This document shows, piece by piece, positions 42,001 through 46,314 of a DNA stretch of 46,314 nucleotides. Source of the stretch: a virus (taxonomy: Duplodnaviria > Heunggongvirae > Uroviricota > Caudoviricetes). Position numbers: made by a program. The stretch's first letter is position 1. The number at the start of each line of letters is the position of its first letter. The DNA is taken from IMG/VR virus record IMGVR_UViG_2880361019_000007. The stretch is one strand, 5' to 3'.

Positions 42001-45000
42001 GCGCACTGACGGTTTCATCGTGGGTGTCGGCTATAAATTCTGATTAGCCAGGTAACACAGTGTTATGACAGCCCGCCGGTTCAGGCGGGCTTTTTTGTGG
42101 GGTGAATATGGCAGTAAAGATTTCAGGTGTACTGAAAGACGGCACAGGAAAACCGGTAGAGAACTGCACCATTCAACTGAAAGCCAGACGGACCAGCAGC
42201 ACGGTGGTGGTGAACACGGTGGCCTCTGAAAATCCGGATGAAGCCGGTCGTTACAGCATGTACGTTGAGTACGGTCAGTACAGCGTCATTCTGTTGGTGG
42301 AAGGATTCCCGCCGTCACATGCCGGGACCATCACCGTGTATGAAGATTCTCAACCGGGGACGCTGAATGATTTTCTCGGTGCCATGTCGGAGGATGATGT
42401 CCGGCCGGAGGCACTGCGTCGTTTTGAACAGATGGTGGAAGAGGCAGCGCGTCACGCAGAGGAGGCGAAGAAGAATGCCGGAGAGGCGGAGACATCAGCG
42501 AGGAATGCCGGCATATCAGCCAGTCAGGCAGAAGAGAGCGCTGCAAATGCTGACACTTCAGCAGGGGATGCATCGGAGTCAGCCCGGCAGGCGGCAGAAA
42601 GTGCAGCCGCTGCAAAGCAGTCAGAGGAGGCGTCCTCGTCCTCGGCCTCTGCGGCCGCTCAAAAAGCCAGTGAGTCATCACAAAGTGCAGCAGATGCTGA
42701 ATTGTCAAAAAAGACGGCAGAAAGTGCAGCCGGTAATGCAGCCAGGGATGCAACGACCGCAACAGAAAAAGCCCGGGAGTCAGCAGAAAGCGCACAGTCA
42801 GCGGAACAAAGCAGGATAGCGGCGGAAGAAGCCGTAAACCGCATCCCCACAGTGGTGGGACCTCCCGGGCCAAAGGGGGAACCGGGTCCCGCGGGTCCTC
42901 AGGGGCCGAAGGGAGATAAAGGAGAGCGTGGCGACACCGGCCCGGCAGGGGCAACCGGTGAAAGGGGACCGGCAGGTGATGCTGGTCCGGCAGGCCCGCA
43001 GGGGCCGAAAGGTGACAGGGGAGAGCGGGGAGAGACCGGTCTGACGGGAAATGCAGGTCCACAGGGTCCAAAGGGAGATACCGGTGCGGCAGGCCCGGCA
43101 GGCCCACAGGGACCGAAAGGAGAAACAGGTGCGGCTGGCCCGGTGGGGGCGACCGGACCTCAGGGGCCGAAGGGCGACCCGGGGGAGACGCAAATACGGT
43201 TCCGTCTGGGGCCGGGAAACATTATTGAGACAAACAGCCATGGCTGGTTCCCGGATACAGATGGCGCACTCATCACCGGACTGACCTTTCTTGACCCCAA
43301 AGATACCACACGGGTTCAGGGTTTTTTTCAGCATTTGCAGGTCAGGTTTGGTGACGGGCCGTGGCAGGATGTTAAGGGGCTGGATGAAGTGGGCAGTGAT
43401 ACAGGCAGAACAGGAGAATGACATGAATATACTAAAAAAACTTATGCAGCGTCTGTGCGGTTGCGGAAAGCATGATGGCCGTGAACACGTGCAGTCGCTT
43501 ACAGCACAACTGCGACTGGTGCGTATTACCGTGAAGGAGATCGGTGAGTAACATCGATGGAGATCGGTTCGTGTCACTTTCACAGAACCGTTTTTAAATT
43601 ACCTTCACTGATCTCCTTCGGTCAACGGAGATTGTATTTTCCGCATTGATTCTCCTTTAAGTTCGATCTTGATACTGCCATGAACCAGTCGATCTAGGAT
43701 GGCATCCGCATGTGTGGAGTCTCCGATCATTTTGTACCAGTTTTCCACCGGCAACTGGCTCACTACGATGATTGAGCCTCGTTGGTACATCAGATCCACT
43801 ATTTCCAGCAGGTCGCTACGCTGTTCTGATGAGAGAGGTTCCAGCCCCCAGTCATCCAGAAGCAGCAGATCGCTATTATTCAGCCTGGTCAAAAGTTTGC
43901 TGTATCTTCCATCAGCATGCCCCTGATAGCACTGTTCCATCAGCGCTTTAAGGCGATAATAGTAGACCTTGTATCCCTGTCGGCAGGCATTATGACCAAG
44001 TGCACATGCCAGGAACGTTTTACCGCTGCCGGTGGCCCCGGTCAGTAAAATATTTTGTTTCAGGGTTAACCAGTTTCCCTGACTGAGTGAACGGATGAGG
44101 GCCCTGTCCAGCCCTCTATTGTTACGATAATCCAGCTTTGATAACTCAGCATTAAGTCTGAACCGTGCATGTTTGATCAGACGCTCTGCCTTCCTGTTTT
44201 CACGGCAGGTTAGTTCTTCTGCTGTCAGTAATGACAGGCGTTCTTCGAAGCCCAGCTCCTGGTATGTGCCCGGCTGAGCAAGTTGCTTTTTAAGCGCATC
44301 ACGGAAGCCGGTGAGTTTAAGTGCGGTCAGTTGTTCGTAAAGATGATTCATCATTGGATCCCGTATCAGTGGTAATACTCACTGCCGCGTACGTTTTCGT
44401 GTTCCATCGTGGATAACAGATCTGGTTTTGGATCCTGAACAGGTTGTTTATCCAGACCTTTTTCCAGGATCGATTTAATACCTGACAGACGCCATACCTT
44501 TGTTTTCAGAGCTCTTGCACATGCTGCATTAAGTCTGGCTTTACTGTATTTTTTATGAAGGTTCAGGAGTCCAAGGCAGAAGCGATAGCTTTGTTCCGGA
44601 TGTGGACGAGAGTTCAGTATATGAAGCACATAACTATGAGTTTCACTGCCTATGTGCCCCGCCCATTCCAGAAGACGCTCTGGCGTCCAGGTGGCATGCT
44701 GTCGATGAGCTTCAGGCATGTGCTCGTTGCGGGTACTGTAGCCATAAGTACGCTTGCGCGGGTGCACAGCAACCTCCTGCCCCTGATTGAAGAGTCTTAC
44801 CAGTTCTCCGGAGATCCATGCTTCCAGTTGCTGGCCTAACAGCGAACATGGAACCGAGTAGTAATGTTTGTCGATTTCCACGTGGTAATCGGCATGAACT
44901 CTGACTTTCTTCACCAGGGTGTAACTGTAACTGGCTTCAGGAAGAGGCTTCAGTGCGGGTTTATCAAGCTGGATGAAGAGTTCTGCACGTGAATAACCCA

Positions 45001-46314
45001 ACTTCTGCATTATTTTGTTATTCAGTCTTTCCAGCAACTCCCGAATGCGCTGATTAAGCGATGCAAGGCTGTAGAAGATCTCATGCCTGATTCGGGCCAT
45101 GATCCAGCGTTCAACAACCTGAACGCCAACTTCAGCTTTGGCTTTATCTTTCGGTTTACGTGGCCGCGCAGGCAAAACTGCGACATTATAATGCTCAAGC
45201 ATCTGCTGGTAGGTAGGGTTAACGTCAGGATCATACTTACATGCCCTGGATGTGGCGCTTTTCAGATTGTCCGGAACAACAAGTTCAGGAACGCCACCCA
45301 ACCACTGGAAGCAGCGAACATGACTCATCACCCAGTCTTCAAGCTGCTGAGACCAGGTGGCCTCTGCCCATGTGTAACTTGATGCCCCGAGAACAGCTAC
45401 GATGACCTGAGCAGTTCTTATTTCTCCGGTCTCAGGGTCGGTAACGCCAACGGTAGGTCCACAGTAATCAACGAAAAGTTTTTCGCCAGCTTTATGTACC
45501 TGACGCATTGATGGTGAAGTGGTTTTGAGCCATTCACGGTACATCCGGCAGTAATGGTTATAGCTGTAAAAACCGCCTGGATTACGCTCACAGTATTCTT
45601 CCCAGAGTAGCTGCAGCGTCACGCATTTATTACGCAGTTCCCGGTGTACTGTAGCCCAGTCAGGCAGAGAGTGCTTCTTCATCTTAACCTGGGTCTGAAG
45701 GAACGCATGTTTTAGTTTTGTATCATCCCATCCTGTAGGTAAGGGCCACTGCTTTATGCCAAGTTGAGCCGCCCGATTAGCATATCTGGATACAACGGAA
45801 GGGGAGATTGCAAGACTACGACCAATTTGTCGATGGCTGAGTCCAACACCGTATTTAAGCCTAAGAATTTCTTTAAGTTTTCTCATAGAAATTGGAACTG
45901 TTGGCATAGGTATCCTTTACCGGAATGGCAAAAGATACAGATCAACACACCTGTGAAGTTCCAATAACATTGATGGAGATCACTGAATAACAAAATGAGT
46001 CAAAAGTGATCTCCATCGATGTTATTCAGCGATCTGTTCAAATGTTATTACCCGATCTCGATGGAAGTTATTGAGTGATCTCCTTTCATGAAAATACGCA
46101 ACTGGGGCCGGCAGACATCCTGGAGTCCGATGAGAATGGTATTATTCCGGAGCAGGACAGGGTAATCACACAGGTGGTGATACTGGATGCAGATAAAAAG
46201 CAGATACAGTGTGTGGTAAGACCGCTGCAAATCCTGCGTGCTGACGGGACGTGGGAAAATATTGGCGGGATGAAGTAACCCGACGGATTCACAAAAACCG
46301 GAGTCTGGCTCCAT

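Follow-up and report, generated by a model that had tools for sequence, protein, structure and literature searches.

A Complete ISEc12 Element Interrupts a Small Gene Downstream of the Tail Fibre Gene in a Lambda-Like Prophage of Escherichia albertii

Introduction

In the 46,314-nt viral sequence analysed here (the window; IMG/VR record IMGVR_UViG_2880361019_000007, Caudoviricetes), two small open reading frames lie downstream of a tail fibre gene, on either side of an insertion sequence. The original prediction was that these ORFs ended and began inside the element and that a gene downstream of the fibre might have been disrupted. It was therefore asked which element had been inserted, where its ends lay, and whether the flanking ORFs were remnants of one gene.

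Based on the analysis, it was concluded, with a probability of about 97%, that a complete and apparently functional ISEc12 was transposed into codon 32/33 of a small post-fibre gene carried by a lambda-like Escherichia albertii prophage. The coordinates of the features are collected in Table 1.

Table 1. Features of the fibre locus and of the inserted element (positions in the window; strand "." means unstranded).
Feature	Position	Strand	Basis
Collagen-like side tail fibre, EPclA type (PfN, coiled coil, collagen repeats, PfC), uninterrupted	42108..43421	+	Pfam
5' fragment of the split 270-nt stand-alone PfC gene, comprising codons 1-32 + 1 nt	43423..43519	+	Reconstruction, IS-free alleles
Target-site duplication, left copy ACTGG	43515..43519	.	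IS-free alleles with a single ACTGG
ISEc12 (IS21 family), complete, 2581 bp, tips 5'-TG...CA-3'	43520..46100	-	Ends as in 11 other copies
istB-proximal terminal inverted repeat	43520..43619	.	Repeat and motif scans
istB, AAA+ helper ATPase, 248 aa from ATG 44351	43605..44351	-	NCBIfam/Pfam profiles
istA, DDE transposase, 513 aa	44366..45907	-	NCBIfam/Pfam profiles, IS5376 IstA alignment
istA-proximal terminal inverted repeat with repeated units	45972..46100	.	Repeat and motif scans
Target-site duplication, right copy ACTGG	46101..46105	.	Direct repeat of the left copy
3' fragment of the split PfC gene, from the rest of codon 33 through codon 89 and the stop	46106..46278	+	Reconstruction, Pfam

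Fibre Gene and Source Genome

The fibre matched the Pfam families phage_tail_N (aa 3-135), Collagen and Phage_fiber_C (aa 365-428). Public gene calls place its start at ATG 42108 (437 aa), and the ORF list at GTG 42102; a look-up of the 439-aa ORF with the GTG start returned no record. For EPclA, the domain architecture has been described and trimerisation by the PfC domain of the fibre shown experimentally (PMC3368898), and a stand-alone PfC gene downstream of the fibre is not discussed in that paper. The idea that frameshift or read-through joins the small ORF to the fibre in front of it was rejected, as the +1 frame was open only from 43291 and its use would destroy the PfC of the fibre.

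Over its final 10,240 nt, the window was identical to the chromosome of E. albertii 2010C-3449 (CP034212.1; organism identified in PMC10673567), which carried the same insertion, and the same right junction was found in two further assemblies. The junction of the element in the window had no match in 5426 complete E. coli genomes, and an exact search of the GTDB species representatives with the left junction also returned no match. An Rfam scan of positions 42000-46314 returned no family.

Identity and Ends of the Element

The presence of an IS21-family element just downstream of the tail fibre, with istA and istB on the minus strand, was borne out by the IS21 family models, and comparison with other copies identified the element as ISEc12. 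The name rests on the RefSeq annotation of identical copies as 'IS21-like element ISEc12 family'. When 10 E. coli copies were combined into a consensus, the element in the window differed from it at 0 of 2581 positions; its IstA was identical to that of seven of these ten and its IstB to that of all ten.

The length had been put at approximately 2.55 kb, and comparison with other copies, in place of the family references that had been suggested for fixing the ends, gave a longer element. All 11 other ISEc12 copies were 2581 bp long and had the same terminal bases as the copy in the window, TGCGTATT…AATACGCA. At both ends the earlier boundary had been drawn approximately 12 bp inside the element; the true tips lie 12-13 bp outside the GAAGGAGATC motif. 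Boundaries at 43532..46088, at the TGAAGGAGATC motif, were considered and rejected, since they left no duplication, the inverted repeat ran further outward and the other copies fixed different ends.

This misplacement also explains why an unambiguous target-site duplication had been missed. Once the true tips were used, ACTGG was found directly on both sides of the element, within the short duplication range (4-8 bp) that is a hallmark of the IS21 family. As the ends had been set independently from other copies, a 5-bp match would arise by chance with a probability of approximately 1/1024. Duplications of 5 bp were present at nine of the 11 other copies, one had a 6-bp duplication and one had none. 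Many IS21 members make 5-bp repeats (PMC11208146), and ISEc12 in tssM of ST131 clade C is flanked by the 5-bp duplication ACTGC (PMC10711316). Compared with such annotated copies, the element described here had the same length, terminal bases and size of duplication, and only its location and host, a prophage accessory fibre gene in E. albertii, were different.

The duplication also bears on whether the two junctions were formed by transposition. They could have arisen by recombination between two ISEc12 copies or by another IS-mediated rearrangement, so that the flanks were not originally neighbours, and copies of the recombination type do exist, as the ISEc12 of one plasmid (L008) lacked a duplication. 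At the locus studied here, however, the duplication was perfect, and the flanks joined into one known gene within the normal gene order of J, lom, fibre and PfC gene. Such an origin was considered extremely improbable.

Transposition Genes and Terminal Repeats

The IstA protein scored 310.5 bits against the NCBIfam model NF033546 (transpos_IS21; cut-off 160) and IstB 270 bits against NF038214 (IS21_help_AAA; cut-off 200), and the Pfam matches to rve, Mu-transpos_C_2 and IstB_IS21 were all above the curated cut-offs. The predicted catalytic residues of IstA, D147, D213 and E259, were aligned with D124, D187 and E233 of IS5376 IstA, which form the catalytic triad of that enzyme (PMC10122671). 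The IstB protein contained a Walker A motif GATGSGKT (aa 106-113) and a Walker B motif LLLLDD (aa 163-168; 249-aa numbering) and matched the IS5376 IstB structures with E = 1.7e-27. The istA stop was separated from the annotated istB start by 14 nt; an alternative in-frame ATG one codon upstream, at 44354, would give an IstB of 249 aa.

The subterminal motifs had been described as repeated in both orientations at both ends, and this was borne out. The heptamer GGAGATC occurred 11 times in the window (expected 4.5 ± 2.0; 0 of 100 shuffles reached 11), and six of these sites lay no more than approximately 130 bp from the IS tips, where each end carried them in both orientations. With up to two mismatches allowed, the GATGGAGATC unit reached approximately 23 times the density in the terminal 282 bp that it had elsewhere in the window. 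Three units were located at the istB-proximal end: GAAGGAGATC at 43533-43542 (+), GATGGAGATC at 43556-43565 (+) and an inverted GAAGGAGATC at 43610-43619 (-). Four to five were counted at the istA-proximal end, where GATGGAGATC was present at 45972-45981 (+) and 46008-46017 (-), with degenerate copies at 46054-46063 (-) and 46077-46086 (-). The inverted repeat was imperfect, its arms matching at 72% over 53 nt and at 81% over 16 nt. The units are putative binding sites for IstA, by analogy with the family.

The istA and istB genes, the inverted repeats at either end and the GGAGATC motifs near the tips were all intact, and the copy is apparently functional, as judged from its sequence. It shared with IS21 and IS5376, for which biochemistry and structures are available, the istA-istB operon, the DDE triad, the helper with Walker A and B motifs, the TG...CA tips, the end repeats and the 5-bp duplications. 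In contrast to IS5376, its IstA was longer (513 versus approximately 400 aa) and only distantly similar (E = 3e-13), and its istA-proximal end carried four direct units and one inverted unit instead of the L1/L2 pair.

From the biochemistry of the family, the following course of the insertion can be proposed. IstA tetramers would bind the repeated sites in both ends and synapse them, while decamers of ATP-bound IstB would bring IstA to the target DNA and bend it. Both 3'-CA ends would then attack the target, at positions 5 bp apart, and gap repair would give rise to the ACTGG duplication.

The Interrupted Gene

Removal of positions 43520..46105, i.e., the element and one ACTGG, restored an in-frame ORF of 270 nt and 89 codons. 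The reconstruction differed from WP_001023452.1 by 2 nt and one amino acid, and the variant residue, T81, also occurred in other intact alleles. The intact 270-nt gene was found at the same place in the IS-free E. coli 2014C-3011 (L001:3324-3593, WP_001023452.1), with a single ACTGG. In IS-free E. coli prophages it was located between the collagen-like tail fibre and the T3SS effector cargo genes, and this conserved gene was present at approximately 7000 places in 698 E. coli genomes, with approximately 11 copies per carrying genome.

The proposed disruption of a gene downstream of the fibre was therefore confirmed, and the flanking ORFs were found to be its fragments. As had been noticed, both run into the element. 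The present 5' ORF (43423..43551) extends 32 nt into it to a stop at 43549-43551 and encodes 42 aa, 32 native and 10 IS-derived, whereas the present 3' ORF (46075..46278; 67 aa) begins at a GTG 26 nt inside the other end. A look-up of the 42-aa stub returned no record, and the 67-aa product matched a public gene call exactly. That public call lists separate 55-aa and 67-aa genes at the locus, as would be expected if the two small ORFs were independent genes, or no genes at all, with the element in an intergenic spacer. Against this, each ORF takes its end or its start from IS sequence, joining the flanks preserves the frame and gives a sequence 2 nt away from an intact allele, and the comparison with IS-free prophages, proposed with the original prediction, uncovered one intact gene of 270 nt instead of two unrelated genes or none. 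Hence, it is hardly credible that the two ORFs are independent.

The reconstructed 89-aa protein matched PF06820 (Phage_fiber_C) with 123.3 bits (cut-off 25; E = 5e-36), its residues 28-89 covering model positions 1-64 of 64, and it was 34% identical to the PfC domain of the fibre itself. The predicted product is a stand-alone PfC domain, a paralogue of the trimerisation knob of the fibre. The native N-terminal 31 residues were conserved in intact alleles. A lipoprotein signal suggested by LCGC in the N-terminus was dismissed, as a hydrophobic core was lacking. The AlphaFold2 monomer of the 89-aa protein, built on a 19-sequence alignment, had a pLDDT of 55.5 and a pTM of 0.35, too poor for a fold search, and a PDB sequence search with the protein returned nothing meaningful.

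Consequences of the Insertion

The insertion has likely abolished the function of an accessory fibre gene. Lambdoid phages can grow without their side-fibre accessory genes, and the loss of the PfC gene is probably tolerated for this reason. The genes further downstream are convergent, a 91-aa ORF being followed by espK (NF011913, 1055 bits). Since both are on the opposite strand, the insertion should have no polar effect on the effector cargo.

Together with the right ACTGG, the 3' part encodes native residues 32-89, nearly the whole Phage_fiber_C domain, and a PfC protein with a replaced N-terminus might therefore still be made from the GTG at 46075. Such a 67-aa product would consist of nine IS-end residues, the ninth codon borrowing one base of ACTGG, followed by native residues 32-89, and transcription would have to come from the late operon or by read-out from the element. 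No stop interrupts the frame from 46075 onward, the GTG is preceded by a GGAAG at a distance of 7 nt, and the product would cover the Pfam positions of the whole PfC domain. However, a promoter and terminator scan of 43300-46314 found a single promoter-like site, which lay within istB, while neither end of the element carried one and no sigma-70-like site was seen there; neither an outward promoter nor a plus-strand site near the istA-proximal end was supported. Late-operon transcripts would need to pass through 2.6 kb of IS in antisense orientation, translation starts poorly at a GTG with a weak Shine-Dalgarno sequence, and the conservation of the N-terminal 31 residues suggests that they are important. 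The 3' piece is promoterless while retaining residues 32-89, and expression of such a protein was considered improbable; a plain knock-out is the preferred reading.

ISEc12 was also found in the Escherichia phages PhiR12_1/_2/_4 (PV340549-PV340553), with the 5-bp duplication GGCGG. In that case the target was different, namely a tail-fibre assembly protein gene of another phage; removal of ISEc12 from this tfa-like gene, part of the side-fibre module downstream of J, restored a 193-aa ORF. The laboratory hosts listed in the records suggest that the PhiR12 phages are viable. A literature search for these phages found no relevant paper.

Other Rearrangements in the PfC Gene

Insertions of IS1203 and IS911 were observed in other strains within approximately 12 bp of the ISEc12 site. 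In both cases the same PfC gene was hit and the transposase genes were antisense to the tail genes, as with ISEc12 here. Unlike ISEc12, both elements belong to the IS3 family, and in the IS911 case (E. albertii 2012EL-1823B) the tail region to the left of the element was lost. In addition, three prophage deletions had right ends 8 nt apart, approximately 45 nt upstream of the insertion cluster. A DNA-invertase crossover site at the deletion breakpoints was rejected, as the breakpoints are not known to resemble gix/cix-type sites.

These cases raise the question of whether the CGACTGGGGCCGGCAGAC stretch is a preferred target of several IS families, i.e., a structural hot spot, or was hit by chance and the insertions tolerated. 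In E. coli NCCP 13946, and also in contig L021, IS1203 had landed 5 bp further downstream than ISEc12 and was flanked by a 3-bp duplication, GGC; the IS911 junction read GGCCGG/CAGAC, and both the IS21 and the IS3 family have been proposed to favour kink-prone DNA (PMC11208146). On the other hand, only three events were found, and the sampling was enormous, with approximately 11 gene copies per carrying E. coli genome. Moreover, the cases were found through protein hits that retained the PfC domain, which limited the detectable insertions to roughly the first 120 nt. A structural preference for the stretch is a tentative possibility, with chance and tolerance being favoured. The broader proposal, that the first third of the PfC gene is a genuine rearrangement hot spot for ISEc12, IS1203, IS911 and three independent prophage-decay deletions, is somewhat more doubtful still.

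Discussion

The event described here is an ordinary insertion by a catalogued element, already in public data. For the annotation, it provides the exact IS ends and the duplication, and the two small called 'genes' become halves of one gene. The junction can serve as a marker of the lineage to which E. albertii 2010C-3449 and its relatives belong. As a stand-alone copy of the trimerisation knob of the fibre, the interrupted gene is very common, and the strain is probably its natural knock-out.

At least three different insertion sequences at the same few base pairs could serve the study of target choice by IS21 and IS3 transposases. If the first third of the PfC gene were indeed a hot spot, it would represent a natural structure-based target, kink-prone DNA, common to the IS21 and IS3 families, and it would mark a recurrent boundary at which lambdoid prophages drop phage genes yet keep their T3SS effector cargo.

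Element Ends and Identity

The product of the 513-aa ORF scored 310 bits against the NCBIfam model transpos_IS21 (cut-off 160 bits) and also matched Pfam rve and Mu-transpos_C_2, and the 249-aa product scored 270 bits against IS21_help_AAA (cut-off 200 bits) and also matched Pfam IstB_IS21. Both proteins were similar to those of IS5376, for which structures have been solved. The catalytic triad of IstA was kept (D147, D213 and E259, aligned with D124, D187 and E233 of IS5376 IstA), as were the Walker A (GATGSGKT) and Walker B (LLLLDD) motifs of IstB. The original prediction of an IS21-family element with istA and istB on the minus strand was thereby upheld. 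By megablast, the element was present in 1760 of 5426 complete E. coli genomes, where it was annotated as 'IS21-like element ISEc12 family'. The window copy showed no differences from the consensus of the compared copies, which indicates, as judged from its sequence, an intact element that probably inserted recently or remains active.

The element had been taken to end at the GAAGGAGATC motif, and an unambiguous target-site duplication (TSD) had not been identified; both points required correction. An inverted-repeat search and alignment extended the inverted repeat outward by 12-13 bp at both ends, and all 11 other copies, from chromosomes, plasmids and phages, started with TGCGTATTACCG, ended with TGAAAATACGCA and were 2581 bp long, which fixed the ends of the window copy. 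Once these were corrected, two copies of ACTGG were found to flank it. The TSD was 5 bp in nine of the other copies and 6 bp in one (L007), and it was absent from a plasmid copy between traX and repA (L008), which implies a later rearrangement there. A 5-bp TSD has been reported for ISEc12 (ACTGC in tssM of ST131; PMC10711316) and for many IS21 members (PMC11208146). The 3' ends of the TSDs of the window and L002-L012 were G-rich (ACTGG twice, ACGGG twice, CTGGG, ATCGG, GGCGG and CTGGAC, besides the published ACTGC), and these sequences suggest a weak target preference of the form NCTGG / ACGGG.

The motif GGAGATC occurred 11 times in the window (4.5 ± 2.0 expected), and the repeats noticed earlier in both termini were borne out, six of these occurrences lying there. 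From the tip inward, the istB end carried two direct units and one inverted unit, and the istA end four direct units (two degenerate) and one inverted unit. The element thus shares the multi-repeat ends typical of the IS21 family (PMC10122671).

Locations of the features discussed (window positions unless a locus is named)
Feature	Location	Strand	Remarks
ISEc12, window copy	43520..46100	minus	ends shared with 11 other copies
TSD, two copies	43515-43519; 46101-46105		ACTGG, flanking ISEc12
istA	44366..45907	minus	513 aa; IS21-family transposase
istB	43605..44354	minus	249 aa; IstB helper ATPase
Collagen-like tail fiber	42108-43421	plus	ends in Phage_fiber_C
Interrupted gene	43423-43519 + 46106-46278		89 aa
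Called gene, CP034212.1	L014:7310-7477		55 aa; window 43384-43551
Called gene, CP034212.1	L014:10001-10204		67 aa; window 46075-46278
Past the window right end	L014:10322-13161	minus (ORF, espK, tRNA)	91-aa ORF, espK (T3SS effector), then tRNA gene, then hya hydrogenase operon
ISEc12 in fiber gene	L002:3001-5581		TSD GCAGA
ISEc12 in lom	L003:3001-5581		TSD TTATC
ISEc12 in tfa-like gene, PhiR12 phages	L012/L013:4003-6583		TSD GGCGG
IS1203/IS911 loci	L022:1290-1330, 2600-2640; L021:1-150; L020:4880-5075		
Remnant chimeras	L017:6001-6354; L018:6001-6312; L019:6001-6270		

The Interrupted Gene

Deletion of 43520..46105 fused the flanks 43423-43519 and 46106-46278 in frame into a 270-nt ORF. The empty-site sequence was matched in 698 E. 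coli genomes, at ~11 places per genome and with up to 97.8% identity. Those genomes carried one intact 270-nt gene between the collagen-like tail-fiber gene and T3SS effector genes, rather than two unrelated genes or none, and their IS-free sequence had a single ACTGG. An example is WP_001023452.1 of E. coli 2014C-3011 (L001:3324-3593), annotated 'phage tail fiber C-terminal domain-containing protein'. Relative to this allele, the reconstruction had 2 nt changed and one amino acid, T81, which other intact alleles carry too. The disruption of a gene downstream of the fiber, with the flanking ORFs as its parts, was therefore supported. Public annotation of CP034212.1 lists the halves as two small genes, the 67-aa one having a GTG start inside the IS end and a Phage_fiber_C match.

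The reconstructed product matched Pfam Phage_fiber_C over aa 28-89 (E = 5e-36) and is a stand-alone form of that domain, preceded by a conserved N-terminal extension of 27 aa. The prophage thus encodes this knob twice, the two copies being 34% identical, and the separate one occurs widely across E. coli, E. albertii and Citrobacter rodentium. The upstream fiber has the same domain architecture as EPclA, the Phage_fiber_C domain of which was demonstrated experimentally to act in trimerization, nucleating the collagen helix (PMC3368898). No role for the stand-alone copy was described in that work or found in the literature searched. A PDB sequence search with the 89-aa protein returned no relative, and its AlphaFold2 model (pLDDT 55.5) was too poor for functional inference.

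Distribution and Neighborhood

The window junction was absent from the 5426 complete E. coli genomes searched; the best combined matches had ISEc12 at other tail-module sites (L002 and L003). ISEc12 was seen repeatedly in lambdoid (pro)phage tail modules, in a fiber gene, lom and a tfa-like gene and beside a tape-measure gene; this recurrence is anecdotal, and L002 and L003 ranked high as their flanks match the query. The same insertion was found, through the 67-aa ORF, in CP034212.1, the chromosome of Escherichia albertii 2010C-3449, which was isolated from a human in 2010 (PMC10673567); it contains the final 10,240 nt of the window without a mismatch. The junction also occurred in two short contigs of other assemblies, both starting within the IS end. 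Since the 91-aa ORF and espK lie on the minus strand, a polar effect on the cargo genes would not be expected from the gene order.

A related prophage of E. coli JB2 (L003) adjoined tRNA-Ser and hyaA. Three tRNA genes (Met-CAT, Arg-TCG and Arg-TCT) were located in the window at 13383-13632, followed ~870 bp on by a 622-aa ORF (14505-16373). Such a layout is typical of Stx-converting-type lambdoid phages, but the gap between the tRNA genes and this ORF held no ORF of at least 120 aa. The region matching the 622-aa ORF in related E. coli prophages covers a gene whose annotation reads SASA-family carbohydrate esterase.

Other Rearrangements in the Same Gene

Two further insertion sequences were observed in the Phage_fiber_C gene within ~12 bp of the ISEc12 site (equivalent to window 46106-46112). 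IS1203 in E. coli NCCP 13946 lay just 5 bp downstream from the ISEc12 target and had a 3-bp TSD (GGC). An end of IS911 abutted the gene at GGCCGG/CAGAC (CAGACATCC) in E. albertii 2012EL-1823B, the tail region to its left being lost. In three prophage remnants, the lambda CII N-terminus, a tail protein K fragment or another sequence was joined in frame to the gene at window-equivalent positions 43468, 43476 and 43476 (8 nt apart or identical), with microhomology of 2-6 nt; each retained nleB/nleC/nleH-type effector cargo downstream. Right-hand deletion endpoints thus seem to recur at this position. The insertions and deletion junctions suggest that the gene holds a fragile or preferred site, a rather doubtful proposition because the sampling was huge and the way of finding cases biased.

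Mechanism and Consequence

The element anatomy, the TSD and the split gene are direct observations; IstA synapsis, target bending by IstB and staggered strand transfer were established biochemically for the IS21 family (PMC10122671, PMC11208146). By analogy, the two ISEc12 ends would be synapsed by an IstA tetramer, the target DNA would be bent by IstB decamers, and two strand transfers would follow with a stagger of 5 bp.

Overall, the analysis confirmed the observation and supported its interpretation, while it moved the element ends and added the TSD. ISEc12 is a known, catalogued element, and the insertion event is ordinary. The deposited phages PhiR12_1/_2/_4, the records of which list laboratory hosts, carry ISEc12 within a tfa-like gene, and the side-fiber genes of lambda are dispensable in the laboratory. 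Both points indirectly support the proposal that the insertion would inactivate an accessory gene and be tolerated.
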